Assembly (NCBI GenBank): GCA_963721805.1
Contig: CAVRJY010000001.1
Span: 192,001 to 256,000 of the forward strand
Origin: Nitrospirota bacterium
GTDB lineage: Bacteria > Nitrospirota > Thermodesulfovibrionia > Thermodesulfovibrionales > JdFR-86
Direction: 5' to 3'
DNA: 64,000 bases
How positions within the stretch are numbered: the first letter of the stretch is position 1; every line of letters begins with the position of its first letter. Below are positions 9,473-59,994 of this stretch, in pieces. A program made the translations under genes and the position numbers. The notes beneath the pieces were generated by a model. It worked only from the letters and a program-made list of their open reading frames with translations, was not told where the DNA came from and searched no databases.

Positions 9473-9631
9473 AAAGTGCGCGAAATCGCGTGATACGTTG
9501 TCATGGCTCGGAAATCCGTCCTCGGAGTACGCTCAAGTACACCGTCGGACGTTTTCCTCGCCATTCCTAGTCTGACGCTGATTTCTCGCGCTTTAAATTT
9601 CAATCTCATAAGTGTGCGAGCGGTCAACGGC
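9473..9631 (+). repeat. GTAC-hairpin dispersed element, copy 1 (subtype A)
   Basis: Imperfect ~125-bp palindrome with apex GTAC-GCTCAA-GTAC and tail GGTCAACGGC. Homologous to 30538-30691 and the reverse complement of 59830-59994. Confidence 0.9.
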
Positions 9632-9870
9632 TCAGTTATATACATAGTTATCGCGCGCGTGCGCGCGCATTTTTTTAGAGCGTTCAAATGAACGAAGAAA
9701 AAACAGTGCAAGGTAGCGGAATCCATGGCTAATTTGAAAGCCTCCATGTTCATGCGTTCAGAAACGGTTTCCGTGCATTCCATCGGCCTTCTGCTCCGCT
9801 TTCTCTGACCTCAAAATGGGCATATAACCCTCATCCAGTATTGAATCACAACGCTATGACAAAAAGCGAT

Positions 9871-9956
9871 AAACTACGGTTTATATATAAACCCAAGTTG
9901 ATAGAAAAAATTGATAGCCGTGCGTTTTCTACTAACTTCCGATTAACTATGGTTAA
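9871..9956. repeat. 86-bp AT-rich palindromic block, copy 1
   Basis: Reverse complement matches 28215-28300 with about 10 mismatches. Contains GGTTTATATATAAACC and TTAACTATGGTTAA. Confidence 0.9.
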
Positions 9957-9980
9957 AGGAGGGGCCGGGCGGCCCCTCCT
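9957..9980. terminator. GC hairpin at the stop of the 68-aa ORF
   Basis: AGGAGGGGCC-GGGC-GGCCCCTCCT. Confidence 0.55.
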
Positions 9981-10186
9981 TATTTCGCGTAAAGTTTCTT
10001 GGCCTGCGCCTTAAAGCCCTTAAGTTCCTCTATCAGGCGGTCGATCTCGGTGTCCATCTCGGCCGGGCTGAAGCAGTCGTAAGAGATCTGGATCTCGCCG
10101 TCCTCGTGCTCCCTGAAATGGTTGAGCCCTATATATACCAGCTTCTTCCCTGACTTCGTCGTCCTCAGTTCAAACGTATGCGCCAT
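9980..10186 (-). CDS. Hypothetical protein, 68 aa
   Basis: AAGGAGGA SD, plausible codon usage, downstream hairpin. Confidence 0.7.
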   Translation of the reverse strand: MAHTFELRTTKSGKKLVYIGLNHFREHEDGEIQISYDCFSPAEMDTEIDRLIEELKGFKAQAKKLYAK

Positions 10187-10218
10187 TATTTAATCCTCCT
10201 TATAAATAACTTTAATTA

Positions 10219-10392
10219 ATGCCTTTGACCATGTGGGGCGCGGAGGGCCTCCTTTATCCGTGCCCCCCGAAAGCGCGCCCAAATCGGCTTCAGACAAGGC
10301 AGGGCAAGAAGACCGCCCGATGGTGTACTGTGACGTACATAGAGGGCGAGTCTTTGAAGCCCAACGAAGTATCAAGCGATTTGGAGCGCTTT
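10219..10392 (-). repeat. GTAC-hairpin element, copy 2 (subtype B)
   Basis: Core differs from 12636-12809 at about 4 of 124 nt. Lies just downstream of trpS. Confidence 0.92.
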
Positions 10393-10423
10393 AAAGAAAG
10401 CACCGGGTGCGGTTCAATAGCCA

Positions 10424-11416
10424 CTATAGTCCCTTCAACCCCATTACTTCCCTTACCTGCTGCATTGTCGCTCGTGCCGTAATGCTCGCCTTATCGGTGC
10501 CTATGTCTATCGCGCGCCTGAGTATCGAGGGATCCCCCGCGATCTGCGCCCGGCGCTCCCACAGGGGCGAGAGTGCCCCGCGCATGTTCTTGATCAGCAC
10601 CTTCTTGCAGTCGATGCAGCCGATCCCGGCGGTGCGGCAGCCCTCGGCGACCTCTGCCAGCTCGGCCTCGCTCGAGAATATCTTATGGAGCTGGTATACC
10701 GGGGAGAGTTCCGGGTCGCCCTTGTCCGTGCGCCTGATGCGCGCGGGGTCGGTGGCCATGGTGCGCACCTTTTTTTCGAGCTCATCGGACGTGTCGCTAA
10801 GGTATATCGCGTTATCGTAGCTCTTGCTCATCTTGCGGCCGTCGAGGCCCGGCACCTTGGGGAACTTCGTGAGCAGGGCCTCGGGCTCGACCAGCACGTC
10901 GGAGTTATACAGCCCGTTAAAGCGCCGCGCGATCTCGCGCGTGATCTCCAGATGCGGCATCTGGTCCACTCCGACCGGGACGTAGTGCGCGCCGTAGAGC
11001 AGGATGTCCGCGCTCATGAGCACCGGGTATCCGAGGAAGCCGTACATCGAGAGGTCGCGGTCTGAGAGGTTTTCCTTTTTCTCCTTGTATGTCGGCACGC
11101 GCTCGAGCCATCCAAGCGGGGTGATCATGCTCAGAAGCAGGTGCAGCTCGGCGTGCTCCAGCACGCGGGACTGCAGGAATATCGTGCAGCGCTCCGGGTC
11201 GAGCCCGGCAGCGATGAAGTTCGTAAGCAAGTCCTTGGTGCTCGCGGCCAGCGCGGAGGGATCGGCGTAGCCTGTAGTGAGCGCATGCCAGTCGGCCACG
11301 AAGTAGTAGCAGTCGTATTCGTCCTGGAGCTTGACCCAGTTGCGCAATGCCCCGACCCAGTTGCCTACGTGAAGGCGGCCGCTTGCCTGCATGCCGCTTA
11401 GAACTCGCTTTTTCAT
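10424..11416 (-). CDS. trpS: Tryptophan--tRNA ligase
   Basis: HVGN (HIGH-like), YPVLMSADIL, VPVGVDQ and KMSKS. Confidence 0.97.
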   Translation of the reverse strand: MKKRVLSGMQASGRLHVGNWVGALRNWVKLQDEYDCYYFVADWHALTTGYADPSALAASTKDLLTNFIAAGLDPERCTIFLQSRVLEHAELHLLLSMITPLGWLERVPTYKEKKENLSDRDLSMYGFLGYPVLMSADILLYGAHYVPVGVDQMPHLEITREIARRFNGLYNSDVLVEPEALLTKFPKVPGLDGRKMSKSYDNAIYLSDTSDELEKKVRTMATDPARIRRTDKGDPELSPVYQLHKIFSSEAELAEVAEGCRTAGIGCIDCKKVLIKNMRGALSPLWERRAQIAGDPSILRRAIDIGTDKASITARATMQQVREVMGLKGL

Positions 11417-12090
11417 AGACCTCCAACCCAGGTTAAAAGTATGCTGAAGAAATAAAGCAGGGGCGCCATGAGAAACCTCGTTGCGCCCGTGGCGATCAGG
11501 AGCATCACGATCATGAACCCGAACGGCTCGAGCCTCGCAAGCTGCCGGCCCATGCTGTAGGGCAGCAGCCCGACCGCGACGCGCCCGCCGTCAAGCGGGG
11601 GGATCGGGATAAGGTTAAACGAGGCCAGCACGAGGTTCATCGTGATGCCAGAGATCAGCATCAGCCTCAGCGGATGAAGCACCGACTCTGCGGTATCGGG
11701 CGATACGAACGCAGAGGCAGGGATCACGACAAATTTGATGAGCAGCAGGCTTATGACCGCCAGCAGGATGTTGCAGACCGGCCCGGCCGCGGCCGTGATC
11801 GCCATGCCGCTGTGCGGGTTTTTGAAGTTATTGGGGTTGATCGGCACGGGCTTGGCGTAGCCGAACATGAACCTCCCGCCGCTGAGGATCAGCATCGCTA
11901 TCGGCAGGATGATCGTGCCGACGAGGTCTACGTGCGCCAGCGGGTTTAGCGTCAGGCGTCCGAGCATCTTCGCTGTGGGGTCCCCGAGGCGGTTGGCGAC
12001 ATACCCGTGCGCGACCTCGTGAAAGGTGATCGCGATCAGTATCGGGATGGCCGATATCGCTATCTGTCTGATTGTATCCGTTATGTCCAT
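11413..12090 (-). CDS. Site-2 (M50) protease family protein
   Basis: HEVAH, AAAGP and FNLIPIPPLDG. Confidence 0.93.
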   Translation of the reverse strand: MDITDTIRQIAISAIPILIAITFHEVAHGYVANRLGDPTAKMLGRLTLNPLAHVDLVGTIILPIAMLILSGGRFMFGYAKPVPINPNNFKNPHSGMAITAAAGPVCNILLAVISLLLIKFVVIPASAFVSPDTAESVLHPLRLMLISGITMNLVLASFNLIPIPPLDGGRVAVGLLPYSMGRQLARLEPFGFMIVMLLIATGATRFLMAPLLYFFSILLTWVGGL

Positions 12091-12152
12091 GGTGGAAAGC
12101 TTATGATATAGCCTATCTCAAAGGCATGTCAAACAAGCGTATAATTGTATCC

Positions 12153-12611
12153 ATGCCGGATATATCGCACGCAGATATAGCGGATGCGGCTGAGATACTC
12201 GAGCTTCAGAAGCTCGCGTTTCAGAGTCAGGCCATATTATACGATTACTGGTCCATGCCGCCCCTGACCCAGACGCTTGAAGATATCAGGGAGGAGTTCG
12301 GCAGGCTCGTATTCCTGAAGGCGACCGAGTCAGGCAGGATCATAGGCTCGGTCAGGGCGTCGCTAGATGACGGCACCTGTCATATCGGCAGGCTGATCGT
12401 ACATCCCGATTTTCAGAACCAGGGCATCGGCACGCGGCTGATGCGGGCGATAGAGGCCGAGTTCCCGGACGCGCAACGCTACGAATTATTCACCGGCAGC
12501 AGGAGCGAGCGCAATATCCACCTCTACGAGAAGCTCGGCTACAGGATCATCAGGCAAGAGCCGGTATCGAATAATGTCTCACTTTTGTATATGGTTAAGG
12601 CGCTTAGCTGA
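12153..12611 (+). CDS. GNAT family N-acetyltransferase
   Basis: VHPDFQNQGIG motif A and N..LYEKLGY. Confidence 0.9.
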   Translation: MPDISHADIADAAEILELQKLAFQSQAILYDYWSMPPLTQTLEDIREEFGRLVFLKATESGRIIGSVRASLDDGTCHIGRLIVHPDFQNQGIGTRLMRAIEAEFPDAQRYELFTGSRSERNIHLYEKLGYRIIRQEPVSNNVSLLYMVKALS

Positions 12612-12635
12612 AAGCGCTCATCTTAATTCCAAACA

Positions 12636-12809
12636 TTGCCATTGACCTTCGGGGCCGGGGGGCCGACCGTTCTTCCGTGCCCCCCGAAAGCGCGCCCAAA
12701 TCGTCTTCAGACAAGGCAGGGCAAGAAGACCGCCCGATGGTGTACTGAGACGTACATAGAGGGCGAGTCTTTGAAGCCCAACGACGTATCAAGCGATTTG
12801 GCGCGCTTT
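12636..12809 (-). repeat. GTAC-hairpin element, copy 3 (subtype B)
   Basis: Near-identical core to copy 2. Lies between convergent genes. Confidence 0.92.
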
Positions 12810-12832
12810 GAAAGAACTTGCTAAGTGCCCTG

Positions 12833-13414
12833 CTAAGGTTTCTTATTCGCCATCGCGGCTGCGGCGGCTGGCAGGTTCTTAAGTACCGACGACATGCGTT
12901 CGGTGAGGGACGCGACCTTCAAGGGCGGCATCGCGGCCATCGCCGCGCCCGACTTGCGGGGGTTCATGCCCAGCAGTATGTTGACCGCGAGGTCTTCAGG
13001 GAGCGCGGCCAGGCGCACCGCGGCATCCTCGGGCTGCATGGCCTCGTAGCTCTTAACGATTTTCTTCGTGTTTTTGTTGTTGAGGTCCCCGGCCGTCTGC
13101 AGAGCGGCCTCGATCTTCATCAGGAGCTTCGTGTACCTGTCGATCTCGTTGTCGAGGTCGCGGCGCATCGCGCCCATGCGCTCCTCCTCGCTCTGGAGCT
13201 TGGCCTCCCATGCCGAGAGTTCCGCGCGGCGGGCCTCGATGTCCTTGTCCGCTGTCTTGGGGGCCGCATCCTGCGCGGCGTACGGTTTCGGGGTGTACAC
13301 GCCTGCGGGCGAGTTCGTCCCGGCGGGCTGGGCTGAGTTGTCGATGCCGTACATCGGCACCGCGATCAGCAGCCCAAGGGCGATCAGGGCCCCAAGCCAT
13401 ATGGCGCGGTTCAT
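12833..13414 (-). CDS. MotE/FlbB-like flagellar protein
   Basis: N-terminal TM, coiled coil, YEAMQPEDAA..ILLGMNPRKSGAAM. Follows fliJ. Confidence 0.75.
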   Translation of the reverse strand: MNRAIWLGALIALGLLIAVPMYGIDNSAQPAGTNSPAGVYTPKPYAAQDAAPKTADKDIEARRAELSAWEAKLQSEEERMGAMRRDLDNEIDRYTKLLMKIEAALQTAGDLNNKNTKKIVKSYEAMQPEDAAVRLAALPEDLAVNILLGMNPRKSGAAMAAMPPLKVASLTERMSSVLKNLPAAAAAMANKKP

Positions 13415-13854
13415 GCGAGCGCCCTCCTGCTTATAAACAGCGCGTCCATGCCCTTTTGCTCCTCGATGTCCTGCTGGCGGGTGAATTGCTTCTGGAGCCG
13501 GTCGCGGTAGGTCTCGATGACCCTGCGCTCGCGGTGGGCCTCGAGCAGGGCGTCGAGCCTGGAGTCGAGCTCGATTGTTGCGGCCTCCACGACCGCGCTC
13601 TGGCGGCCGCGGCTCCGGTCCATGCTCTCGCGGTACTCAAACAGCATACTGAGCTCAAGGACGTCGAGCGTGCGCTCCGACTGCACCTCGAAGAGCCGCT
13701 TCATCGCGGCATCGAGGCTGCGGTCGATCAGCCGCAGCGCGGCCTCCTCGTCCTCCAGGACGGCGCGTGCGCGGCGGACCTCGGCGACCTTGTCCTCCTC
13801 CTCGATCTCGCGGACCTCGGCCACGCGCGTCAGCGTCGATATCCTCTGTCTCAT
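13411..13854 (-). CDS. fliJ: Flagellar export protein FliJ
   Basis: 147-aa coiled coil after fliI with C-terminal EEQKGMD. Confidence 0.8.
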   Translation of the reverse strand: MRQRISTLTRVAEVREIEEEDKVAEVRRARAVLEDEEAALRLIDRSLDAAMKRLFEVQSERTLDVLELSMLFEYRESMDRSRGRQSAVVEAATIELDSRLDALLEAHRERRVIETYRDRLQKQFTRQQDIEEQKGMDALFISRRALA

Positions 13855-13879
13855 ATCTTGTAACTCATTGGCTTATATC

Positions 13880-15244: not shown

Positions 15245-15902
15245 GCATGGCCTCCAGCTCGCGCTCTATCTCGCGTATCTGCCCGTCGATCTCGGTGACG
15301 ACCTCGTCGGCCGGACCGATGACGACCGGCCCGGTGGCCGAGGCCGAGGGGTCGACGTCGAAGACGATATCGGGGTGTATCGCCATGAGCTCGGGCTTAA
15401 TCTTCTGGATGAGCTCGGCCACGGCCGGGTTGAGCTTGATCGTGACCGGCCCGGTCTTCTCGACCTTGCGCAGCGCGGCCTTGACGAGTTCGGCTATGGA
15501 CTCGGGGGACTGCTTCAGCTCGGTCGCTATGACCTTGCGGGCAATCGCCACGGAGAGCTTAAGCAGCCCGGGCTCGATCTCGCGGCTCAGGTTGTTTTTC
15601 CGGTCGATGAGTTCGTTGAGCGTGTGCTGCAGGCGCTGGAGCAGCGCGGCGGCCTTCTGCTGCCCGACCTCGAGCCCCGCCCGCTCCCCTGCGGCGTACC
15701 CCTTCCGATAGCCCTCTTTCTCAATGGCTGCGATGTGCTCGGCGGGCGTGGGGCCTGCGGGCTTCCTTAGCTCCTCGCCCTTGATCCTGCCCTCCAAATG
15801 CGGCATCCCGAAGACAGGCTGTCCCGTATCCTTCAGCACCTTGCTCCTGAAAAGCGAGCCGCTCTCTGCGGTGCCCTTTATGCTCGATGCGGTCCTCATC
15901 AT
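15225..15902 (-). CDS. fliH: Flagellar assembly protein FliH
   Basis: GxxxG repeats and IARKVI. Lies between fliG and fliI. Confidence 0.85.
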   Translation of the reverse strand: MMRTASSIKGTAESGSLFRSKVLKDTGQPVFGMPHLEGRIKGEELRKPAGPTPAEHIAAIEKEGYRKGYAAGERAGLEVGQQKAAALLQRLQHTLNELIDRKNNLSREIEPGLLKLSVAIARKVIATELKQSPESIAELVKAALRKVEKTGPVTIKLNPAVAELIQKIKPELMAIHPDIVFDVDPSASATGPVVIGPADEVVTEIDGQIREIERELEAMHAAVRP

Positions 15903-15916
15903 CTATCGGAGCCCGC

Positions 15917-17005: not shown

Positions 17006-17056
17006 TTACGCGGCCCCCGTGCCTTCCGACATTATGCCCTGTCTCATTATATTAGC

Positions 17057-24563: not shown

Positions 24564-24711
24564 AAAGTGCGAGAAATCGCGTCAGACAAGGGTGCCACGG
24601 GCACTTTTCTTTAACAGGAGGGGGTCCGTGACCCCCGATGGTGTACTGTGACGTACATAGAGGGCGGATTTTTGAAGCCCTGACGCAGTATCACGCGTAT
24701 TTGGCGCGCTT
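24564..24711 (-). repeat. GTAC-hairpin element, copy 4 (A/B mosaic with mini-hairpin substitution)
   Basis: Outer arms are like subtype A and the apex is like subtype B. No clear tail. Confidence 0.88.
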
Positions 24712-24748
24712 GAGGAAAGTGGAGGATTCGCAAAGCAGCTTTCGTTAA

Positions 24749-25795
24749 TTAATAAGTTATATTCTTCTTCTTAATCTTTTCAATCAATGTCGTGCGATTT
24801 AATCCTAGAAGCGACGCCGCCTTGCTCTTGACCCCGCCTACCCGTTTGAGGGCAACGGTGATCATATGCCTCTCGATCTCATCCATCAGGTCATTAAGGT
24901 TCACCCCGCCTTCCGGGAGCGGGAAGAGGAAGTCAGGCCGGGGCTCGGCATATGAGAACCTCGGGCCGTCCTCGGCCGCGGGCGCGGCGGGCGCGGTAGA
25001 GATCATCGAGGGCTCCGGCGCGCCCAGGACGCGCGGGGGGATGTCCTGCATCGTGATGGAGTCGTCGTTACAGAGGGTCACCATGCGCTCTATCGTGTTT
25101 TCGAGCTCGCGCACGTTGCCGGGCCAGTGGTAGACTTGCAGCTTCTCGACGACCTCCTGCGAGACCTCGACCTCGCGGCCCCGTTTTTTGGAGAAACCGG
25201 TAACGAACTCCTGCACCAGCAGCGGTATGTCATTTTGCCTCAGCCGCAGCGGCGGCAGGTGCATCGGGATGACGTTGAGGCGGTAGTAGAGGTCCTCGCG
25301 GAACGCCCCGGTGCGCGTCGCGGCCTCCAAATCGCGGTTCGTCGCGGCGAGTATTCGGACGTCGACCGAGATCGTCTTGGTCCCGCCAACGCGCTCGAAC
25401 TGCCGCTCCTGAAGCACGCGCAGGAGCTTGACCTGCAGCGTCGGGTGCAGCTCCCCGATCTCGTCGAGGAATATCGTGCCCCCGCTTGCGAGTTCGAACC
25501 TGCCCGGCCTCATCGCTATGGCGCCCGTAAACGCGCCCTTCTCGTGGCCGAACAGCTCGCTTTCGAGGAGGTTTTCGGGGATCGCGGCGCAGTTGACAGG
25601 GACGAATGGTTTGGGTGCGCGGTCGCCGTTTTGGTGGATCGTCTTGGCTACGCGCTCCTTGCCGGTGCCGCTCTCGCCATAGATAATAACGGTGGTATCG
25701 GAGGCCGCGACCTTGCGGATCAAATCGAAGACCTGCATCATTTGACGCGATTCGCCCGTAAGCATTGGGTAACGGCCCTCTCCCCGTTGGTCCAT
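24749..25795 (-). CDS. sigma54 activator (FleQ-like) lacking an N-terminal sensory domain
   Basis: GESGTGKE at about residue 40, GAFTGA, WPGNVRE and C-terminal LNRTTLIEK HTH. Confidence 0.9.
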   Translation of the reverse strand: MDQRGEGRYPMLTGESRQMMQVFDLIRKVAASDTTVIIYGESGTGKERVAKTIHQNGDRAPKPFVPVNCAAIPENLLESELFGHEKGAFTGAIAMRPGRFELASGGTIFLDEIGELHPTLQVKLLRVLQERQFERVGGTKTISVDVRILAATNRDLEAATRTGAFREDLYYRLNVIPMHLPPLRLRQNDIPLLVQEFVTGFSKKRGREVEVSQEVVEKLQVYHWPGNVRELENTIERMVTLCNDDSITMQDIPPRVLGAPEPSMISTAPAAPAAEDGPRFSYAEPRPDFLFPLPEGGVNLNDLMDEIERHMITVALKRVGGVKSKAASLLGLNRTTLIEKIKKKNITY

Positions 25796-25977: not shown

Positions 25978-27819
25978 ATGTACAACCTTCCGCGGATAGA
26001 TCCCATGCTCGCGCGCGACGGGCGCGGGCTGGTCGTCCTGGAGTCCCTCAGGCCGGATGCGCAGAACCGCACCAGCTATGTCTTTCGAGAGCCGGAGAAA
26101 GTCCTTACCGCTCATGACTGCGAGGGCGTGGCCCGCGCGCTTACGGAGATCGACCGGCTCTCGCGGGAGCGCTGGATCGCGGGGTACATCACTTACGAGG
26201 CGGGGCTCTGCATGGAAGGGGCCACGGGCCCTCTCCTCGCCACGGGCCCTCTCCTATGGCTCGGGGTATACAGCGGTGCCACCAAGTACGACCACGTAAC
26301 GGGTCAAATTGCGGGAGACGCTGCGGTGTTCGCATCGGGTGAGGTTGAGCAAGGGGATTACGCTATCACAAACCTCGCGCTTGAGATGGACGCGGCGCGG
26401 TACGCCGAGCGCATAGGGCGGGTGAAAGACTATATCGCTGCCGGGGACGTCTACCAGGTGGACTTCACGACCGGGTACGCTTTTGATTTTACGGGCTCGG
26501 CATATGCCCTTTATGACGCACTCAAGAGAAAGCAGACCGTGGCATACGCCGCGTTCATCCGCACGGATAAAGGCGGAGAGGTGCTATCTCTCTCGCCGGA
26601 GCTGTTTTTAAGGCGAAGCGGCGACATAGTGACAGTAAGGCCGATGAAGGGCACCGCACCCCGTGGCCGCACCGCGGCAGAGGACGCCGCGCAGGCAACG
26701 TACCTCGCCGCCGATCCCAAGAACCGCGCCGAGAACGTGATGATCGTCGACCTGATGCGCAACGACCTCGGCCGCATCAGCCGCACGGGCGGGGTGCGTG
26801 TTGCGAGTCTCTTTGACGTCGAGCGGTACGAGAGCCTGCTTCAGATGACGAGCACGGTCACGGCCGAGCTCAGGCCGGACGTTAAATGGTCAGAGATCAT
26901 GCGCTGCATCTATCCTTCGGGCTCGGTGACCGGCGCGCCGAAGATCAGGGCCATGGAGATCATACGCGAGCTGGAGGACGGGCAGCGCGGGGTATACACC
27001 GGGGCGATAGGGTTCATCGCGCCGGGCGGCCGCGAGGCCGCGTTTAACGTACCGATACGGACTATAGAGCTAAGCGGCGGACGTGGCCGGATGGGCGTGG
27101 GAAGCGGGATAGTCGCGGACTCCGGGATCGCGGCGGAGTACGAGGAGTGCGTGCTTAAGGCCGCGTTTCTGACCTCGCCCCCGGTTGCGCCATTTAAACT
27201 GATTGAGACGATGCTCTGGGAGCGGGGCGGATATAAGCGGCTGGCGCTGCATATGGAGAGGCTGGCCGCCTCGGCCTCGTACTTCGAGATTCCGCTGAGT
27301 GAGGATGGAGTCAGGCGGGCGCTAGATGATGCCGCATCCGCGTTCGATGCGAATCTGCGATACCGCGTGAGGCTCACGCTCGATAGCGATGGCCGCTCCG
27401 ATGTTAATGCGGCCGGGCTGGTTGATACCGCTTCGGATACCGTCGCGATCTCGCCGCTTCGCACATCGAGAAAAGATGTCTTCCTGTATCACAAGACCAC
27501 AAACCGCGCGCTTTATGATGCGGAGTTCAAGAGGTGCTCTGCGGAAGGCCATGCGGACGTGCTGTTTTTAAATGAGGAGGGCGAGCTGACCGAGGGCGCG
27601 ATATCGAACGTGTATGTCGAGATCGAGGGCATGCTCTATACCCCACCGGTCGGGTGCGGTCTGCTCGCTGGCGTGATGCGGCGCGTGCTGCTTGAAGAGG
27701 GCAGGTGTACCGAGCGTGTGATCACCCTGGACGACCTCAAGGCCGCGGATGCGGTCTATATCTCGAACTCGGTGCGCGGGCTTAGGAGGGTCAGTATCGT
27801 ATTGCCGGCACTGCCGTGA
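25978..27819 (+). CDS. pabB: Aminodeoxychorismate synthase component I fused to class IV aminotransferase / ADC lyase
   Basis: SPELF, PMKGT, MIVDLMRND and TGAPKIRAM, then LHMERL, HKTT and GLLAGVMR. Confidence 0.92.
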   Translation: MYNLPRIDPMLARDGRGLVVLESLRPDAQNRTSYVFREPEKVLTAHDCEGVARALTEIDRLSRERWIAGYITYEAGLCMEGATGPLLATGPLLWLGVYSGATKYDHVTGQIAGDAAVFASGEVEQGDYAITNLALEMDAARYAERIGRVKDYIAAGDVYQVDFTTGYAFDFTGSAYALYDALKRKQTVAYAAFIRTDKGGEVLSLSPELFLRRSGDIVTVRPMKGTAPRGRTAAEDAAQATYLAADPKNRAENVMIVDLMRNDLGRISRTGGVRVASLFDVERYESLLQMTSTVTAELRPDVKWSEIMRCIYPSGSVTGAPKIRAMEIIRELEDGQRGVYTGAIGFIAPGGREAAFNVPIRTIELSGGRGRMGVGSGIVADSGIAAEYEECVLKAAFLTSPPVAPFKLIETMLWERGGYKRLALHMERLAASASYFEIPLSEDGVRRALDDAASAFDANLRYRVRLTLDSDGRSDVNAAGLVDTASDTVAISPLRTSRKDVFLYHKTTNRALYDAEFKRCSAEGHADVLFLNEEGELTEGAISNVYVEIEGMLYTPPVGCGLLAGVMRRVLLEEGRCTERVITLDDLKAADAVYISNSVRGLRRVSIVLPALP

Positions 27820-28117
27820 TTTCCGCGCTGATCCTCGCCATCACGCCATCAATGCCTGAAAGCACGTCTGTCTGCGTGCAGCTTAAAAACCTGATCCCGT
27901 AGCCCTCGATGATCGCCTGACGCTTCTTGTCCGGGCCCTTCGCGCCCTCGATCTCGACCACCAGCCTGAGCTTGGGGCAATAGAAATCAACGACCAGCTG
28001 CCCGACGCCGTATTCGCGGCTGAACCTGTAACCATTCAGGTCTGTTTCCTTCAGCCTGGCCCAGAGGGCGGCCTCGGCCTTCGGCGCTTTAATCTCAAGC
28101 AGTCCGTTTTTTGTCAT
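27791..28117 (-). CDS. DUF559 (Vsr-like) endonuclease-domain protein, degenerate
   Basis: AEAALWARL, GYRFSRE and VVDFYCPKLRLVVEIEG. Confidence 0.8.
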   Translation of the reverse strand: MTKNGLLEIKAPKAEAALWARLKETDLNGYRFSREYGVGQLVVDFYCPKLRLVVEIEGAKGPDKKRQAIIEGYGIRFLSCTQTDVLSGIDGVMARISAEITAVPAIRY

Positions 28118-28214
28118 TTCGTTTGCCTCACTGAATGTTCCGGCCAAAGGTATATTGTTGATGGCGGGTGCGTCTTATTAAGTATAGCATTTACGTGGCA
28201 ATCGGCCTCATTTA

Positions 28215-28300
28215 TTAACCATAGTTAATCGTAAGTTAATAGAAAACGCACGGGCATGAATTTTTTCTATAAGCTTCGGTTTATATATAAACCAAAGTTT
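28215..28300. repeat. 86-bp AT-rich palindromic block, copy 2
   Basis: About 88% identical to the reverse complement of 9871-9956. Confidence 0.9.
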
Positions 28301-28569
28301 GGCATTCTTTAGTGTATATTGGTTCTATGAGCAGTTTAGGATCATATCTGATGGGTAGCGCAGGCGGGGTTAGAGGGTTCCGCACTTGTTCGGATAAAGG
28401 GCTGAAAAGAGCCAAAAATATCCGAACATCCGAACACGGGGAACTAGGAGAATCAATATTTTCCGCAGAGTTATCACCGGTTTTGCGCCCGACATCCGAA
28501 CAGAATCGGCAAAAACGCGCGCGCACGCGCGCGGAATGCATAACTATACCTAAGCGCGGACATCAGAAC

Positions 28570-28767
28570 ATGCCTTTGACCTCGTGGGGCGCGGGGGGCG
28601 TCCTTCGTCCGTGCCCCCCGAAAGCGCGCCCAAATCGTATTCAGACAAGGGGCCGACTGGCCCTTTCTTCAGGAGAGGTGCCCGTGGCACCCCGATGGTG
28701 TACTGTGACGTACATAGAGGGCGAGTCTTCGATGCCCAACGACGTATCAAGCGATTTGGAGCGCTTT
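28570..28767 (-). repeat. GTAC-hairpin element, copy 5 (subtype B with mini-hairpin substitution)
   Basis: Matches copies 2 and 3 except at about 28650-28693. Confidence 0.9.
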
Positions 28768-28846
28768 GATCGAAAGGGACGCTTGCCAGATGAGGCCGCT
28801 TTAAGGTTAAATGGTGGTTCAATAAAACTAAAGGTAGGTGTCCCTA

Positions 28847-30532
28847 ATGGCTACAGTTGAGCCTAATAAGATTATTTATTCCATGGTGCGGGTCAGCAAG
28901 CTCTACGACCGCAAGCCCATAATCAAGGACATCTCGCTCTCGTATTTCTACGGTGCCAAGATCGGCGTGCTCGGGCTGAACGGCTCGGGCAAGAGCACGC
29001 TTCTGAAGATCATGGCCGGGGTCGAGAAGGAGTTTGAGGGCACCGCTGTGCTCTCGCCCGGATACACCGTCGGATACCTCGAGCAGGAGCCGCTCCTGAG
29101 CTCGGAGAAGACCGTGCGGCAGGTCGTTGAGGAGGGCGTGCAGGCCACGGTCGATCTCGTAAACGAGTTTAACCAGATAAACGAGAAATTCGCCGAGCCG
29201 ATGTCGGATGACGAGATGGAAAAGCTGTTAAAGAGGCAGGGCGAGGTGCAGGAGCAGCTCGACCACCTTGACGCGTGGGACCTCGACTCGCAGCTTGAGA
29301 TGGCGATGGACGCGCTCGGATGCCCGGACGGCGCGATGAACGTTAACGTCCTTAGCGGCGGCGAGCGCAGGCGCGTCGCGCTATGCAGGCTGCTGCTGCA
29401 GAAGCCCGACATACTGTTGCTGGACGAGCCCACCAACCACCTCGACGCCGAGACCGTGGCGTGGCTCGAGCACCACTTGAAGGCTTACGCCGGTACGGTC
29501 ATCGCGGTGACGCACGACCGCTACTTCCTCGATAACGTCGCGGGATGGATACTCGAGCTAGACCGCGGCGAGGGCATCCCGTGGAAGGGGAATTATTCCT
29601 CGTGGCTGGAGCAGAAAGAGGCCCGCCTCGCCAACGAGGAGAAGCAGGAATCGCAGCGGCGTAAGACTCTCGATAGGGAGCTTGAGTGGATACGGATGTC
29701 CCCCAAGGGCCGCCACGCAAAGGGCAAGGCCCGCATCAGCTCATACGAGGCCCTGCTCGGGCAGGAGGCGGAGAAGCGCGCCGAGGACCTTGAGATCTAC
29801 ATCCCTCCCGGCCCGAGGCTAGGGAAAACCGTAATAGACGCCGAGGGCGTCACGAAGTCATACGGCGAGAACATCCTTATGGAGAACGTATCGTTCATGC
29901 TCCCGCCGGGCGGCATAGTCGGCGTGATCGGCCCAAACGGCGCGGGCAAGACCACGCTATTTAGGATGATCACCGGGGCCGAGGAGCCGGACGCGGGCAC
30001 GCTCAAGGTCGGCGAGACCGTGACGCTCGCGTACGTGGACCAGAGCCGCGAGGGCCTGAGCGCGGACAAGAGCGTGTATGACGAGATCTCGGGCGGCTAT
30101 GACATGATAAAGATGGGCTCGCGCGAGATCAATGCGCGCTCCTATGTCGGGAAGTTCAACTTCTCGGGCACCTCGCAGCAGAAGAAGGTCGGGATGCTGT
30201 CGGGCGGCGAGCGCAACCGCGTGCACCTGGCGAAGCTGCTGAAGTCCGGGGCGAACGTCATATTGTTAGACGAGCCGACGAACGACCTCGACGTCAACAC
30301 CCTGCGCGCGCTCGAAGAGGCGCTCCTGAACTTCGGCGGCTGCGCGGTGGTGATCAGCCACGACCGCTGGTTTCTGGACCGCATCGCCACGCACATGCTG
30401 GCGTTCGAGGGCGATAGCAAGGTCGTATGGTTTGACGGGAACTACTCGGAGTACGAGGCCGACCTTAAGGCGCGGCTAGGCGTAAACGAGATCACGCCGC
30501 ACAGGATAAAATATCGTCACTTGACTAGGTAG
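28847..30532 (+). CDS. ettA: Energy-dependent translational throttle ABC-F ATPase
   Basis: SYFYGAKIGVLGLNGSGKS, two ABC domains and ELEWIRMSPKGRHAKGKAR linker. Confidence 0.96.
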   Translation: MATVEPNKIIYSMVRVSKLYDRKPIIKDISLSYFYGAKIGVLGLNGSGKSTLLKIMAGVEKEFEGTAVLSPGYTVGYLEQEPLLSSEKTVRQVVEEGVQATVDLVNEFNQINEKFAEPMSDDEMEKLLKRQGEVQEQLDHLDAWDLDSQLEMAMDALGCPDGAMNVNVLSGGERRRVALCRLLLQKPDILLLDEPTNHLDAETVAWLEHHLKAYAGTVIAVTHDRYFLDNVAGWILELDRGEGIPWKGNYSSWLEQKEARLANEEKQESQRRKTLDRELEWIRMSPKGRHAKGKARISSYEALLGQEAEKRAEDLEIYIPPGPRLGKTVIDAEGVTKSYGENILMENVSFMLPPGGIVGVIGPNGAGKTTLFRMITGAEEPDAGTLKVGETVTLAYVDQSREGLSADKSVYDEISGGYDMIKMGSREINARSYVGKFNFSGTSQQKKVGMLSGGERNRVHLAKLLKSGANVILLDEPTNDLDVNTLRALEEALLNFGGCAVVISHDRWFLDRIATHMLAFEGDSKVVWFDGNYSEYEADLKARLGVNEITPHRIKYRHLTR

Positions 30533-30537: not shown

Positions 30538-30691
30538 AAAAGTCGCACTAAAGTCGCGTGATACTGCGTCAGGGCTTCGGAAATCCGTCCTCGGAGTACG
30601 TCACAGTACACCGTCGGACGTTTTCCTTGCCGACGCGATTTATCGCGCTTTAGCGCAGCTTGCGCTTAATCGTGCGAGCGGTTAACGGCAT
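30538..30691 (+). repeat. GTAC-hairpin element, copy 6 (subtype A, internal deletion)
   Basis: Homologous to 9473-9631. Starts 6 bp after the ettA stop. Confidence 0.9.
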
Positions 30692-30695: not shown

Positions 30696-31250
30696 TTAAT
30701 GCGCGGAGCGAATAGGTGAGCGCGGAGCGTGAATATTGAAGGGGCCAGCCGGCCCCTTAAGGGACGAGCGGGTCGGCCTCAGTCGGAGCGGGATATGTAC
30801 GCCTTTGCTCGCACTCCTCGCGCCACCGGGGAGGGTCTCCTGATGGAGCTCCATGGCCTCGACCGCACGCGCCGGGTTGACGCGCGCGAAGTATTTGAGC
30901 ACCTGCGCGCCGAGCTCGTGCGGGTTGATGGGCTTGATCAGGTATCCGCTGATGCCTATTTTTACGAAGTCCATCACGTCGTCGCTCTTTGACAGCGAGG
31001 TCAGGATGATGGCCGGGGTCGCGCGGTCGCCGAAGAACGTGCGGATCGTCTTGAGCGCGGCATAACCGGTCATGACCGGCATGATGCTGTCAAGCAGCAT
31101 GAGATCGGGCTTCTGCTCGCCGTAGGCCTCGAGGAGTTCCTTGCCGTTGGCGACGAACCGCTTCTCGAATACGTAGCCGCTGAGGAAGCAGTCGTAGGTA
31201 TCCTGGAGCGATTTTTCGTCCTCCGCTATCAGGATATGGATTTTTTCCAT
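30696..31250 (-). CDS. Response regulator (receiver domain)
   Basis: AEDE, LLDSIMPVMTG, ILTS and KP. The C-terminal ~40 aa run through hairpin DNA. Confidence 0.85.
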   Translation of the reverse strand: MEKIHILIAEDEKSLQDTYDCFLSGYVFEKRFVANGKELLEAYGEQKPDLMLLDSIMPVMTGYAALKTIRTFFGDRATPAIILTSLSKSDDVMDFVKIGISGYLIKPINPHELGAQVLKYFARVNPARAVEAMELHQETLPGGARSASKGVHIPLRLRPTRSSLKGPAGPFNIHAPRSPIRSAH

Positions 31251-52996: not shown

Positions 52997-53081
52997 AACC
53001 GTCACAAATCCCTTCAGCCGGTCTGGCCCGCAATAGATTCCCGGCGCGGCCGGCCTGAAATGTTATAAAATACCCCCCATC

Positions 53082-54960: not shown

Positions 54961-54964
54961 GGGG

Positions 54965-55714
54965 ATGGCCGGGGTCTCGGTCATCATCTCCGCGCTCAAC
55001 GAGGAGCGCAACGTCCTGGCCGCGATAGGCAACGCCTTGCAGGCACTCAAGGACTTCGGGATCGACGGCGAGGTCGTCTTCGTAAACGACGGCAGCACGG
55101 ACGCCACCGGCGCTGTAGTGGCGGAAAAGTATGCCGGAGATCCCCGCTTAAGGACGATCACGCACGAGAGGCCGCACGGCGTGGGCGGATCGTTTTGGGA
55201 GGGCGTCGACCTCGCGCGCGGCGAGGCCGTGTTCTGGTTGCCGGGCGACAACGAGAGCGACCCCTGGGAGATTCTCAGGTACTACCCGCTGCTGGAGCAC
55301 GTGGACATGGTGGTGCCGTTCGTCTTCAACCCAGAGGTCAGGCCGCGCTCGCGCCGCGCCCTCTCGCGGCTTTACCTCCTCGTGATCAACCTCACCTTCG
55401 GGACGGGGTTTAACTACACGAACGGTACGATCATGTACAGGAAGAGCATCCTGCGGACGCTCCCCAGCAGGACCGATTCGTTCTTCTTCCAAAGCGACGT
55501 CATCATCCGCCTGGCCAGGATGGGCTGCCTGTACGCCGAGGTCCCGGTGAGGCTCGGCGTGCGCGATACGGGCGAGTCGAAGGCCTTAACCTTCAAATCG
55601 TTCCGGAAGGTCGCGGCCGGGTATATAAAGCTCGTAAGGGATTATCATTTCGGCCCTCGCGGCCCGCGCGAGTTCCCGCCGGATACGCAGACGTATAAGC
55701 GGAGGCGCGGCTGA
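54965..55714 (+). CDS. GT2 glycosyltransferase
   Basis: SVIISALNEE, VNDGSTD and PGD. Confidence 0.9.
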   Translation: MAGVSVIISALNEERNVLAAIGNALQALKDFGIDGEVVFVNDGSTDATGAVVAEKYAGDPRLRTITHERPHGVGGSFWEGVDLARGEAVFWLPGDNESDPWEILRYYPLLEHVDMVVPFVFNPEVRPRSRRALSRLYLLVINLTFGTGFNYTNGTIMYRKSILRTLPSRTDSFFFQSDVIIRLARMGCLYAEVPVRLGVRDTGESKALTFKSFRKVAAGYIKLVRDYHFGPRGPREFPPDTQTYKRRRG

Positions 55715-55735
55715 GACCGGAGGGTTTTCTCCCTG

Positions 55736-56878
55736 TCAGGGGAGCAGCGGCGTTTTAGCAATTAACCTGTCGTAAGAGGCCTGCACGGCGTACGAGAGCG
55801 ATATTACCGCAACGCAGCATATGACCATGAACGCGGAGAGCTCGCCCGAGGAGCTCCAGCGTAGCGGCCCGTTACCGATTGAGACAAGCCCGACCAGCCG
55901 CAGCCTGGTGGCCTCGTAATAGAGCACCTGTGAGATCACCTGATGAAAGAGGAATGTGATGAATGAGGCATATGCGATAAACGAGACCGCGCGCCTGGCC
56001 GGGCCGAACCTGTTGATGAGCGTCGAGGGGATATACAGCACGAAGAAATACGCTATCGACTGAAACGCCGAGATGTCGAGCGTTACGGTAAGGTATTGCC
56101 GGGCCGCCAGCGACGCGGCGAGGGCCACCGAGATGGCCGCCCACCCCCTGAGTGAAAACAATACCGCCAAAATCTTCCTGTCGTGGAATACCCAATCGGC
56201 CGTCAGCATCCCGAACGTGAAATAAGGCAGATATTCAAACGGGAGCTTCCCTGAAAATGCGACGCCTGCCGCATCGAGCGCCTTTGCCGCCAGGTAGTTG
56301 GCCGCAAGCGACAGGATGACCAGCGCCCACTTCGAGGCATCGTGCGAGAACGCCTTTACGAACAGCGGAAACGCGATATAGAACCAGACCAGGACTCCGA
56401 CGAACCACAGCGCACCGTAATCGAGATAGTCCGGCGTGAAATTCTGTAGCAGCAGCATGGCGCTGAACAACCCCTTCAGGTCCGAATAAGACCTGAAGGT
56501 GCGCCAGAAGTATACGGCGATCACGGCCGCCCAATAAAGCGGCAGGACCCGGATCGCCCTCTTTTTGTAGAACCCGGCCCACGAAGGCCGCTTCTTCAGA
56601 TAGCTCAGATAAAGGCCGTACCCGCTCGCCATGAAAAATGCGCTGACAGCGATCCCCACATTGTGCGTAAACGCCGAGATAAGCCCTGCGACGCTTTCGG
56701 AGAAGTCATGCGAAAATATCATCGAGGATATCTGCTGAAGCGTCGGCCTTGCATCGAACCCCTCAAAATACCTCGCATCCTCAAAATGCCAAAATACGAT
56801 CTGAAGGATCGCGACGGCCTTGACGAAGGTAATGAACTGGCTGATCTGATCCTTGCCGCGGGCGGGGGATGACTGCAT
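55736..56878 (-). CDS. Acyltransferase-3 family membrane protein
   Basis: KAVAI...VFWH, VSAFFMASGY, FYKKRAIRVLPLYW and LWF. Confidence 0.88.
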   Translation of the reverse strand: MQSSPARGKDQISQFITFVKAVAILQIVFWHFEDARYFEGFDARPTLQQISSMIFSHDFSESVAGLISAFTHNVGIAVSAFFMASGYGLYLSYLKKRPSWAGFYKKRAIRVLPLYWAAVIAVYFWRTFRSYSDLKGLFSAMLLLQNFTPDYLDYGALWFVGVLVWFYIAFPLFVKAFSHDASKWALVILSLAANYLAAKALDAAGVAFSGKLPFEYLPYFTFGMLTADWVFHDRKILAVLFSLRGWAAISVALAASLAARQYLTVTLDISAFQSIAYFFVLYIPSTLINRFGPARRAVSFIAYASFITFLFHQVISQVLYYEATRLRLVGLVSIGNGPLRWSSSGELSAFMVICCVAVISLSYAVQASYDRLIAKTPLLP

Positions 56879-56889
56879 CGGACGCGCTG

Positions 56890-58329
56890 TCAGGGCTGCT
56901 TTAGCTTGCGCGAAAGTATCTCGTTTACTGTCTTGGGGTTGGCCTTGCCCTTGGTAAGCTTCATGAGCTGCCCGACGAAGAACCCCAGCAGCTTTTCGTC
57001 ACCGCCCCGGTAGCGCTCGACCTCTTTGGGGTTGGCGGCCAGCACCTCGTCGACTATGCGCTCGATCTCCCCGGTGTCGCTCACCTGCACGAGGCCCTTT
57101 TCCTTCACTATTGCCTCGGCGTCCCTGCCCGAGGTGAACATCTCGCTGAATACGCCCTTTGCGATCTTGGCGTTGATCGTGCCGGAGTCTATGAGCTTCA
57201 GGAGCCCCGCAAGCGCGGCGGGTTTCATCGGGCAGTCCTCGATAGCGGTGTTGGTCTCGTTGAGCATGCGCATCAGTTCGCCCATGATCCAGTTGCTGGC
57301 GGCCTTGGGCTGCGCCCCGGCTGCGACAGCGGCCTCGAACCACTCGGCCGTCGCCCGCTCGTTCGTCAGCAGCCACGCGTCGTAGTCCGGCAGGCCCATC
57401 GCTGAGGTATACCGCGCCACCTTCGCATCCGGAAGCTCCGGCAGCGTGGCGCGTATCGCCTCTATGCGCTCCGGCGTCGTCGTGATCGGCACGAGGTCCG
57501 GCTCGGGGAAGTAGCGGTAGTCATGGGCCTCCTCCTTCGAGCGCATCGAGACCGTGACGTTCGCGCCGGAGTCCCAAAGCCGGGTCTCCTGCACTATCGT
57601 ACCGCCTTCTTTGACCGACTTGATCTGGCGCCTGATCTCGTACTCTATCGCCTTCTCGACGAACCTGAACGAGTTGATGTTCTTGACCTCGACCTTGACG
57701 CCGAGCGTGGTCTGCCCTATAGGGCGGACCGATACGTTCGCGTCGCAGCGAAGCGAGCCTTCCTCCATGTTGCCGTCGCAGACGCCGATGTACCTTAGCA
57801 GGCTTCTAAGCTTGCGCATGTACTCCGCCGCCTCGGCGGGGGTGCGCATGTCCGGCTCCGAGACTATTTCCATAAGCGGCACGCCGGTGCGGTTTAAATC
57901 CACAAAGCTGTATTGCCCCGCGCCCTCGTGGATGTTCTTCCCGGCGTCCTCTTCCATGTGGATGCGCGTGATCCCGATGCGGCGGAGCTTGCCCTCGATC
58001 ATGACGTCGAGGTGGCCGTGCTCGCAGATCGGCTGTTCGTACTGGCTGATCTGGTAGCCCTTCGGCAGATCCGGGTAGAAGTAGTTCTTGCGCGCGAAGC
58101 GGCTGTATGGCGCGATGGTGCAGCCCGTGGCGAGGCCCGAGCGGATCGCGAACTCAAGCGCGGTGCGGTTCAGCACGGGGAGCACTCCGGGCATGCCTAT
58201 GCATATCGGGCAGGTCTGGGAGTTCGGCCCCTGGCCGAATTTCGTCGAGCAGCCGCAGAATATCTTGGTATTCGTGCGCATCTGCGCATGGACCTCAAGC
58301 CCTATGACGGCCTCGTACTGTGTGCTCAT
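56890..58329 (-). CDS. gatB: Asp/Glu-tRNA amidotransferase subunit B
   Basis: [31 protein letters not shown] and [10 protein letters not shown]. Confidence 0.97.
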
Positions 58330-59762
58330 AGCGCGGGCCTCTTTTGCTTGCGCCAGCCCGCGGCCTGCTCGTATGCGTACGCGGCCTGAAGCAGCCGCGC
58401 CTCGTCGAAGTTCCGGCCTATGAGCTGTAGCCCGATAGGAAGCCCGGCCTCGCTGAACCCGCACGGCAGCGATATCCCAGGCACTCCGGCGAGGTTCACA
58501 GATATAGTGAATATGTCCGAGAGGTACATCTTCAGCGGGTCGTCGGTCTTCTCACCCGCCTTGAATGCGACCTCCGGCGCGGTTGGGGTGGCGATGACAT
58601 CGACGCTTCGCAAACGCCTCGTCGAAGTCGCGCTTTATCAGCGTGCGCGCGGACTGCGCCTTGATGTAGTAGGCGTCGTAATACCCGGACGATAGGGCGT
58701 ACGTGCCGAGCATGATCCGGCGCTTGACCTCGGCGCCAAAACCTTCTGCACGCGACTTTAGATACATCTCCATCAGATCCTTCGCGCCCTCGGCTCGACG
58801 GCCGTACTTCACGCCGTCATACCGCGCGAGGTTCGATGAGGCCTCTGACGTGGCGAGGATGTAATATGTCGGCACCGCGTAGTCGGTATGCGGGAGCGAG
58901 ACCTCGACTGATCTCGGCCCCGAGGGAGGCAAGCGTCTTGAGTGCGGCCTTAAACGCGGCCTCGACCTCGCGGTCCATGCCCGGTACGCTGTATTCCTTC
59001 GCTACGCCGACCTTCAGGCCCTTGATCCCGTGGCCCAAGTGCGGCGGTGTAGTTCGGGACGTCGAGAGGCGCGCTCGTAGAGTCGCGCTCGTCCTGGCCG
59101 GAGATGATCTTAAGCATGATCGCGGCGTCGCACACGTCCTTGGTGATCGGGCCTATCTGGTCGAGCGAAGATGCGAACGCGACGAGCCCGAAGCGCGATA
59201 CGCGGCCGTACGTGGGCTTGAGCCCGACTACGCCGCAGAACGCCGCGGGCTGCCGGATCGAGCCTCCGGTGTCGGAGCCGAGCGCCGCGATGCACTCATC
59301 CGCCGCGACCGCCGCGGCCGATCCGCCGCTCGAGCCGCCCGGCACGCGCTCGGTGTCCCAGGGGTTGCGAGTGGGGTGAAACGCCGAGTTCTCGGTAGAT
59401 GAGCCCATCGCGAACTCGTCGAGGTTCGTCTTGCCCAATAGCACATAGCCCGCTTGCGCGAGCTTTTCGGTGACGGTGCTGTCGTATGGCGGGATGAAGT
59501 TTTCGAGTATCTTCGAGGAGCACGTGGTTCGCACGCCCTTGATGCACATGTTGTCCTTGATCGCTATCGGTATGCCCGCCAGAGGGCCGGACGCACCGGT
59601 CATCGACGAGGCGATCTCCGGAGTGCGCGTGACGTATGCGCCAATGCGGCTCTCGACCGCGTCTATGCGGCCTTCGACCGATTCGAGCACCTCGGCCGCC
59701 GAGACCTCGCGCTTGTCGAGCAGCTCGCGCAGGTCATGTATGGTCAGACGGAACAGTTCCAC
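58326..59762 (-). CDS. gatA: Amidotransferase subunit A, interrupted by three +1 frameshifts (~59033, ~58909, ~58607)
   Basis: [40 protein letters not shown] and MYLSDIFT across four ORF pieces. Confidence 0.93.
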
Positions 59763-59829
59763 AGCCAATATTATCACATGCAGGGAAATTCGTTGTCAAA
59801 AGGGGAAAGCGCGCGAAATCGTTTGAACA

Positions 59830-59994
59830 ATGCCGTTGACCGCTCGCACGATTACGCAAGGGCAACACTTAAAGCGCGATAAATCGCGTCAGACTAGGAA
59901 CGGCGAGGAAAACGTCCGACGACGTACTGAGACGTACTTCGAGGACGGATTTCCGAAGCCGTGACAACGTATCACGCGTATTTAGCGCGGCTTT
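59830..59994 (-). repeat. GTAC-hairpin element, copy 7 (subtype A)
   Basis: Reverse complement of copies 1 and 6. Starts 12 bp after the nadC stop. Confidence 0.9.

Follow-up and report, generated by a model that had tools for sequence, protein, structure and literature searches.

A multi-copy family of folded, strand-polarized intergenic repeats in a Nitrospirota genome and its relatives

What kind of element is a long, interrupted hairpin that recurs seven times within one stretch of bacterial DNA, and what holds its fold in place? The question arises from a window of 64,000 nucleotides (nt) of a Nitrospirota bacterium (assembly GCA_963721805.1, contig CAVRJY010000001.1, positions 192,001 to 256,000 of the forward strand); "the window" denotes this whole stretch, and coordinates refer to it unless a contig is named. 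A preliminary description had listed seven copies of the hairpin and had proposed that its structure rather than its sequence is selected, and that it is a structured RNA or a single-stranded DNA (ssDNA) substrate that resembles ERIC and REP repeats and belongs to no named family. All seven copies were recovered, with copies 1 and 6 on the minus strand, and a whole-genome nhmmer search returned exactly these seven matches inside the window. The GTAC-N6-GTAC apex is present in seven out of seven copies, and both the unpaired TCAGAC, which is partly lost in copy 6, and the unpaired GTATCA were found. The paired changes that separate the subtypes are likewise real (CGTCC/GGACG versus CGCCC/GGGCG, GGAAA/TTTCC versus GAAGAC/GTCTTT, and ATGGC/GCCAT versus ACGGC/GCCGT). 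The analysis described here supports the proposed nature of the element and extends it to a family that is much larger than the window suggests.

Selection acts on the fold of a genome-wide repeat family

The assembly that was searched (2.775 Mb in 9 contigs, approximately 60% GC, 94% complete) contains 231 nhmmer matches to the hairpin core of approximately 124 nt at E<1e-3, of which 184 are full length, and a "seven-copy family" is thus true of the window only. The modal core length is 123 nt (91 of the 184 full-length copies) and the mean column identity among copies is 77%. When up to two mismatches are allowed, the core motif occurs 137 times in the genome, versus 0 occurrences for the pattern read backwards.

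A covariance model was built from 91 distinct copies, and 114 copies (112 distinct) were aligned to it. In the 112 distinct copies, standard pairs account for 89.1% of the cells, versus 27-52% after a shift of the 3' partners by 1-3 columns. Changes on both sides of a pair were observed in this genome for 32 of 43 pairs, versus 17.5±2.1 in shuffles, and 0 of 500 shuffles were as high; in 30 copies from three other genera, double changes affect 34 of 43 pairs (24.3±2.1 in shuffles, again 0/500 as high), these counts being counts of sequences, not of events, in alignments fitted to the model. A model-free alignment by MAFFT, folded with RNAalifold, has double changes in 13 of 20 predicted pairs. 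The covariation in this larger alignment is strong, both here and in the other genera, and it demonstrates that selection acts on the fold.

The stems are wholly different between lineages and yet remain paired, and the loops keep the sequences RCRAGG, (G)ARG, YUGAG and GAYGNNGYA. Within this genome, the fixed unpaired stretches read TCAGAC(A/T)AGG, CCG-NNGG, NGAGG and GAC-NN-GTATCA. The apex, which had been taken as the defining feature, covaries from GTAC/GTAC to GTAT/ATAC in this genome and is replaced by GCGCAG/CTGCG in relatives; it is the internal loops that are conserved instead. Two candidate identities for the loops were considered. A K-turn reading of the inner loop is not claimed, as position 2b is a G and not an A. 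The ACAAGGA of the outer loop resembles the CsrA consensus, and a csrA gene is present; because the ACA is not conserved in other lineages, a CsrA site is kept as a lead only.

Read along the better-folding strand, an element consists of a head, a small variable module, the long-hairpin core and a short tail. The head, (A)TGCCGTTGACC, is nearly invariant. The small module is either a hairpin with the order G-block, G-block, C-block or reads GCTCGCACGAT..., the core consensus is AAAGCGCG...CGCGCTTT, and many copies end in a short tail of the form SAARAARGC. The motif GCCNTT(G/A)ACC, which had been described as a tail, is indeed borne by six of the seven window copies (copy 4 is without it), but its position was misjudged: GCCNTTGACC forms the 5' end of the better-folding strand and was hence renamed the head. 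Head type and outer-stem type are linked among the 184 copies (86 G/A, 44 C/B and 54 other combinations), and the inner stems and the apex add further combinations. With head, stem and apex modules combined in such varied ways, the family is a mosaic. In longer cores of 145-160 nt, such as those of copies 4 and 5, the 5' arm is expanded by inserted small GC hairpins, and the same fold architecture is found in every subfamily.

Two smaller features accompany many copies. REP-like units of approximately 29 nt, each a GC hairpin of 15-16 nt (GGGGCCGACTGGCCCC, GGTGCCACGGGCACC) followed by TCTCACTATTCGC, form tandem arrays 5' of many heads (e.g., at 815318, 350373 and 382898 of C1, the contig that contains the window) and also occur inside the cores of copies 4 (24564-24712) and 5 (28620-28767). 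In many tails (e.g., C1:267354, C4:339848 and C5:72246), the 3' arm GCGCTTT is followed by GAAG-AAAGCG, possibly a small alternative hairpin that would compete with the outer stem of the core.

The family, which had been pictured on the scale of this one genome, extends far beyond it. By the protein identity of a housekeeping gene, 58-62% at best, the genome itself groups with Nitrospirota or Thermodesulfovibrionia-like metagenome-assembled genomes. Among other genera of the same taxonomic family, the core was found in 3 of 10 genomes, with 21, 17 and 15 matches at E<=0.01. The searches of the order and the phylum used a second covariance model that includes copies from relatives, and their copy numbers are "at least" values from the best 23 candidates per genome; they retrieved core matches from 25 of the 150 other genomes within the same order, representing 5 of 13 families, and from 43 of 150 other genomes of a phylum sample (Nitrospirota-like). 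Among five records of other phyla, one contains the core: a metagenome-assembled genome of Rokubacteria with six matches (best E 3e-14). Three other-phylum records have none, and one further other-phylum match (E 0.0099) was not counted. The exact apex pattern has 0 matches elsewhere in two large collections, one of genome contigs and one of metagenome contigs; because the apex motif is lineage-specific, these blanks say nothing about the spread of the family. Similarly, the core pattern with up to two mismatches retrieved nothing in 40 relatives; the covariance model subsequently detected the family there.

In most relatives, the core is located inside outer inverted arms, AGAACCTGTCTCAAAATTG or GGCAACCTCTAAAAA. 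The AGAACCTGTCTCAAAATTG arms have TA-like ends and occur 41-136 times per genome in five genomes. Outer arms are also found alone: at one locus of a relative (L193, G113:C121:2094-2140), they form a 19-bp hairpin without a core, followed by TTTTTTGTTTT, a T-run. This gives the impression of a core nested within a terminator-like hairpin that is itself repeated.

Rfam 15 yields 0 matches at the gathering score in the 64-kb window, so that no strong match to a described Rfam family exists there; at E<=1, four loci with five copies give two weak Rfam matches, neither of them on the element. Literature searches found no paper on such a repeat in Nitrospirota, and one report, in the part of its text that was available, gives REP counts only, for three Nitrospirota genomes (PMC12306157). 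Taken together, the core represents a structured element of old age and vertical persistence, which many Nitrospirota-like genomes contain in multiple copies, and it is a candidate for a new RNA family record.

Strand preference and placement at gene ends

The two strands of the element are not equivalent. With RNA parameters, the head-to-tail strand is the more stable one in 158 of 184 copies of this genome (mean difference -4.4 kcal/mol) and in 43 of 44 copies of relatives (mean difference -10.3 kcal/mol); with DNA parameters, this applies to 174/184 and 41/44 copies, respectively. The complementary strand still folds, with a mean of -52.8 kcal/mol. G-U versus A-C cells number 232:75, 103:74 and 41:23, and across genera a G-U pair is conserved at the base of the apex stem.

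The element is also polarized relative to genes. Based on crude in-house gene calls (ORFs, i.e., open reading frames, and codon usage), the tail points towards a stop codon in 123 of the 184 copies of this genome, at a median gap of 15 nt, and towards a start codon in 61, approximately 4.6 standard deviations from an even split (normal approximation by hand). Among the 44 copies of relatives, 25 point with their 3' end towards the stop of a convergent ORF and 12 towards a start, and 7 have nothing near that end. Where the 3' end lies against a stop codon, the gene in question is encoded on the other strand, and the better-folding strand is thus antisense to the gene that the element follows. 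A sigma-70 scan called no promoter at the TTGACC heads.

Placement close to stop codons is what would be expected of a plain 3'-end hairpin, i.e., a terminator or a REP-like mRNA stabiliser that acts on the mRNA of the adjacent gene and thus on the complementary strand. Apart from the median distance of 15 nt in 123 of 184 copies and the 25 of 44 copies at stops in relatives, this explanation would draw on the stable fold of the complement and on the outer arms of relatives, which on their own are a hairpin with a T-run. We nevertheless consider it unlikely, because the complement is the weaker fold in 158/184 and 43/44 copies, and conserved G-U pairs turn into A-C mismatches on that strand. 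In addition, a U-tract follows the core on neither strand, 61 of 184 tails are directed towards gene starts, and a plain stabiliser does not need loop sequences that are conserved across phyla.

Low-GC islets and the search for a mobilising enzyme

The flanks of the element differ in composition. For 181 copies, GC is approximately 50% in the first kb beyond the head and reaches 59% at 3 kb, as opposed to 62-63% throughout beyond the tail. In this genome, the heads face low-GC islets of foreign genes, and the element stands where these border on core genes. Neighbouring copies form 71 head-to-head pairs, 60 of which are within 5 kb, 69 tail-to-tail pairs, 18 of which are within 5 kb, and 85 tandem pairs. 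The DNA between the copies has 49.5% GC in the 64 head-to-head pairs within 8 kb and 62.9% GC in the 30 tail-to-tail pairs within the same distance. Islets of 0.4-8 kb are enclosed by 57 head-to-head pairs, and seven head-to-head dimers are without cargo.

A scan against Pfam covered 150 of 185 cargo ORFs, with two further ORFs of at least 75 amino acids (aa) outside the scan, and for many of the scanned ORFs a Pfam match is missing. The cargo includes toxin-antitoxin genes, namely MazE/PemK, HepT with MNT (two pairs, plus a lone HepT), ParE, HicA, Phd, Gp49 (one with an adjacent helix-turn-helix gene), DUF4258/DUF2283 and DUF4160/DUF2442. Restriction-modification genes are present as an MmeI-like gene and a methylase with an Mrr domain, and further cargo comprises Abi_C, a KAP NTPase, HNH, HEPN and two families of insertion sequences (IS). 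In two freshwater-sediment DNA runs, contigs of at least 82% likeness pile up on three repeat positions and hardly on the intervening genes; a clean empty-site joint was not found in these two runs.

Many islets contain a second conserved component, an AT-rich, non-coding segment of approximately 370 nt that we call module X. It has 56 matches, 48 of which are adjoined by a co-oriented head, and of the 57 islets, 36 have it at exactly one head, 0 at both heads and 21 at neither. Module X carries a GC palindrome and a T-run and reads as a terminator for transcription that enters the islet. In the window, the palindrome CGCGCGCGTGCGCGCG with its T-run (9652-9677, plus strand) is terminator-like and is predicted to stop transcription coming from the repeat side. 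The orientation of the cargo relative to module X was too weak a signal to be used, with the nearest gene pointing away from it in 24 of 34 islets.

Inverted pairs that bracket small toxin-antitoxin or restriction cassettes bring to mind integrons and pdif modules, and the element could accordingly be a folded recombination site of the attC or pdif kind, at which a tyrosine recombinase swaps cassettes and the 57 head-to-head pairs are docking points. In attC sites, the bottom strand folds, opposite to the gene that abuts the site with its stop codon, and the better-folding strand of the repeat has the same relation to the gene at its 3' end. The head GTTGACC is close to the consensus GTTRRRY, the genome has seven tyrosine recombinase genes, and the occurrence of module X at one head in 36 of 57 islets, never at both, would also fit. 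However, none of the seven genes is linked to the repeats, and the best score for an integron integrase (TIGR02249) in this assembly is 68.8 bits versus a cut-off of 265. Inverted sites would invert their cargo rather than excise it, the apex as a presumed "core site" covaries instead of being conserved, the pairs are of mixed subtypes without any left/right rule, and the elements of relatives are solo and without low-GC flanks. A recombination site is for these reasons distinctly improbable.

A mobile origin requires closer consideration. The element could be non-autonomous, similar to a miniature inverted-repeat transposable element (MITE), a REPIN or a PATE, and the hairpin would serve a trans-acting transposase as its ssDNA or terminal-repeat substrate; the fold would then be kept by the enzyme's need for structure. 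The high number of interspersed copies, the tolerated G-T pairs and the strand asymmetry seen under DNA parameters as well would be explained in this way, and the outer inverted arms of relatives (AGAACCTGTCTCAAAATTG, TA-like ends, 41-136 per genome), the seven cargo-less head-to-head dimers and an active IS200 in six copies point in the same direction.

Traces of transposition were sought in the flanks. In 166 single elements, the longest word shared by head flank and tail flank equals that of the shuffled-partner control, with a single exception of 16 nt (C5:73577), and the outer flanks of 55 pairs are the same as mismatched controls; the test is blind to duplications of 2-4 nt, because the exact ends of the element are unfixed. 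Two IS families were mapped. An IS of 1206 bp, which encodes a 344-aa transposase of the rve type and has the terminal repeat TGTAAAGG, is present in 11 copies that are approximately 99.8% identical (C1:81095-82300, C1:963106-964311, C2:405823-407028 and eight more). It is always inserted within tandem palindromes GGAACYRGTTCC, which looks like a sequence-specific insertion hot spot. The second is a minimal IS200 of 602 bp with the end hairpins CCCCGTGGCTTGCCACGGGG, present in six near-identical copies (C1:42213-42814, C1:366468-367069, C1:1251880-1252481, C1:1452029-1452629, C4:138454-139056 and C4:146419-147020), four of which are inside repeat-bracketed islets. The ends of both IS are unrelated to the element. 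The earlier statement that no transposase lies in the window holds as far as these two mapped families are concerned.

In the 94%-complete assembly, no Y1 transposase besides that of IS200, no TnpB, no IS110 transposase and no reverse transcriptase were found. Y1_Tnp is present in 102 of 150 other genomes of the order and is missing from 6 of the 25 that carry the element, three of these six being 92-99% complete; it thus does not track the element. Relatives do have outer inverted arms, and the one arm-to-arm stretch that was opened, of 3.7 kb, contains a TPR gene and no transposase. The outer arms by themselves are a hairpin with a T-run, the copies are diverged (77% identity versus 99.8% for the IS) and the loops are conserved across phyla. 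With neither a target duplication nor a matching enzyme in these searches, we regard a mobile element dependent on a transposase as rather unlikely.

The reading that we favour, as possible and still short of probable, is a strand-specific boundary or insulator element of the ERIC/BIME type. As predicted from sequence, the element would be a cis-acting signal in single-stranded form, most likely RNA, which would be produced only when transcription leaves the head side and runs into the 3' end of the neighbouring gene, as antisense or read-out. The long hairpin, with loops that possibly bind a protein, may then stop, trap or process the transcript and in this way insulate the core genes, and foreign cassettes would persist between back-to-back insulators. 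Copies may spread and reshuffle mainly via recombination among modules, in line with the failure to find a dedicated transposase. The location of module X on exactly one head of many islets suggests that some cassettes may enter next to the head.

Several observations weigh against an insulator. At gene ends, 61 of 184 tails face start codons, and the genes are defined by the crude calls mentioned above. A terminator scan of positions 9300-13000 calls no site at copies 1-3, and the core is followed by TTT only, without a U-tract on either strand. The strand asymmetry is also obtained with DNA parameters and thus leaves room for ssDNA as the acting form, and the pair counts carry the limits stated with them. 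Relatives have no GC asymmetry in their flanks, and the link to islets may thus be special to this lineage. Finally, the insulator model does not account for the origin of new copies.

A more far-reaching version, which we hold to be quite unlikely, would be that the core is an undescribed multi-copy RNA or ssDNA module, spread over one phylum or more, and that it provides a cassette system with its borders and docking points. If true, the conserved purine-rich loops would be read by a host factor, foreign genes, often led by module X, would be taken up beside the head between back-to-back copies and kept insulated from core genes, and acquired genes would be organised in a manner unlike that of integrons, pdif modules and transposons.

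The seven copies of the window illustrate the range of settings. Copy 1 (9473-9631, minus strand; 107.7 bits) has its core hairpin at 9473-9595 and its head, GCCGTTGACC, at 9622-9631; its tail is 6 nt from the start of an ACT/MBL-fold gene (7890-9467, minus strand). Between its head and that of copy 2 lies a low-GC islet (9632-10218, approximately 47% GC), which contains an AT-rich, non-coding module X (9644-9964, minus strand; nhmmer match C1:201644-201964), with its 3' end adjoining the head of copy 1, and an ORF of 67 aa (9980-10186, minus strand) without a Pfam match. Copy 2 (10219-10392, plus strand; 138.7 bits) starts with its head at 10219, followed by a G-rich small hairpin and the core at 10269-10392, and its tail is 31 nt from the stop of a class I (Trp/Tyr) tRNA synthetase gene (10424-11416, minus strand). 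Copy 3 (12636-12809, plus strand; core 12686-12809; 141.3 bits) is oriented with its head towards a GNAT acetyltransferase gene of lower GC and with its tail 23 nt from the stop of the gene at 12833-13414 (minus strand).

Copy 4 (24564-24712, plus strand; 45.4 bits) is a headless core, the 5' arm of which is interrupted by small GC hairpins, and its tail is 37 nt from the stop of a sigma-54 activator gene (24749-25795, minus strand). Copy 5 (28570-28767, plus strand; 62.6 bits) has a head and a 148-nt core with inserted small hairpins (28620-28767), and its tail is directed towards the start of an ABC-F ATPase gene (28838-30532, plus strand). A module X of 42% GC (28205-28570, plus strand; nhmmer match C1:220205-220570) adjoins its head, and beside this module is a stand-alone gene for a DUF559 protein with a Vsr-like endonuclease fold (27791-28147, minus strand). 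Copy 6 (30538-30691, minus strand; core 30540-30652 with the TCAGAC loop deleted; 62.7 bits) has its tail 7 nt from the stop of the ABC-F gene, and its head abuts a response-regulator gene (30696-31250, minus strand). Copy 7 (59830-59994, plus strand; core 59868-59993; 105.1 bits) has its tail 12 nt from the stop of a quinolinate phosphoribosyltransferase gene (60006-60860, minus strand). On its head side, an amidase gene is split into two ORFs (58552-58932 and 58950-59777, minus strand) that correspond to positions 1-229 and 271-368 of Pfam Amidase, and the gene is probably broken.

Comparison with known systems

Structured interspersed repeats, among them REP, ERIC, BOX and Correia, were recognised decades ago. 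The family described here falls within this known kind, and its reach and polarity are unusual. By combining conserved loops and freely covarying stems across the phylum with a measurable strand preference, a fixed gene-end polarity and, in one genome, a near-regular association with about 57 small islets of defence and toxin-antitoxin genes, it provides an unusually clean handle for study that could show what such repeats do and whether a small genome thereby holds foreign DNA safely.

For REPIN-RAYT systems, MITEs, attC/CALIN sites, pdif sites, intrinsic terminators and all Rfam families, the element lacks those defining features for which it was tested. The element shares its size, its copy number and a hairpin-forming RNA with Correia, RUP and other bacterial MITEs, and the outer arms of relatives have TA-like ends. 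Unlike in MITEs, a target duplication was undetected in the flanks compared above and a parent IS was not found among the two mapped families, and the copies are old, diverged and conserved across phyla. With attC, CALIN and pdif sites it shares folded sites beside stop codons, a favoured strand and toxin-antitoxin or defence cassettes in between, and as in pdif modules, these are bounded by inverted sites. In contrast to integron attC and CALIN arrays, there is no IntI, the sites form inverted pairs instead of tandem arrays and the R-box motifs are not conserved. In contrast to pdif/Xer, no 11-6-11 (28-bp) site is kept, and the sole palindrome with a 6-nt spacing, the apex, covaries. It also differs from an intrinsic terminator in that TTT only, and no U-tract, follows the core stem.

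A partial likeness exists to the intrastrand-triplex repeats BoxC, PIT and TMECO, which show the same order of G-block, G-block and C-block as the small module of the head (PMC4666352). The same text reports higher genomic variability near TMECO (PMC4666352). However, the TMECO consensus given there, CCCTCNCCC-N3-6-GGGNGAGGG-N3-GGGNGAGGG, is unmatched, and the likeness is confined to the head module of a single subfamily and does not extend to the core.

REP/BIME and REPIN-RAYT repeats are described as mosaic intergenic repeats of hairpin modules that persist for long times, occupy gene ends and serve as hot spots of IS insertion, with REPs of 20-40 nt that depend on a single-copy RAYT flanked by REPs (PMC3116915, PMC3337134). 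The element is likewise a mosaic of hairpin modules, intergenic, persistent and placed at gene ends. Unlike REPIN-RAYT, it has a single hairpin core of approximately 124 nt instead of doublets of 20-40 nt, and a RAYT is neither present nor co-distributed.

ERIC or IRU elements of Enterobacteriaceae are reportedly imperfect intergenic palindromes of approximately 125 nt that occur in several genera at very different copy numbers; compensating changes are said to keep their fold, and variants with internal insertions reportedly exist. We know of no transposase that is linked to them. Judged by these features, the element agrees with ERIC in size, intergenic placement, multi-genus reach, compensating changes, internal insertions and the lack of a linked transposase. 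It differs in its distribution over one phylum and into a second, in its purine-rich loops, its gene-end polarity and its location at islet borders in this genome, and no likeness in sequence is apparent from this comparison by features. Thus, in size, placement, persistence and compensating changes, ERIC and BIME-type mosaics are the closest known relatives in kind of this repeat family.

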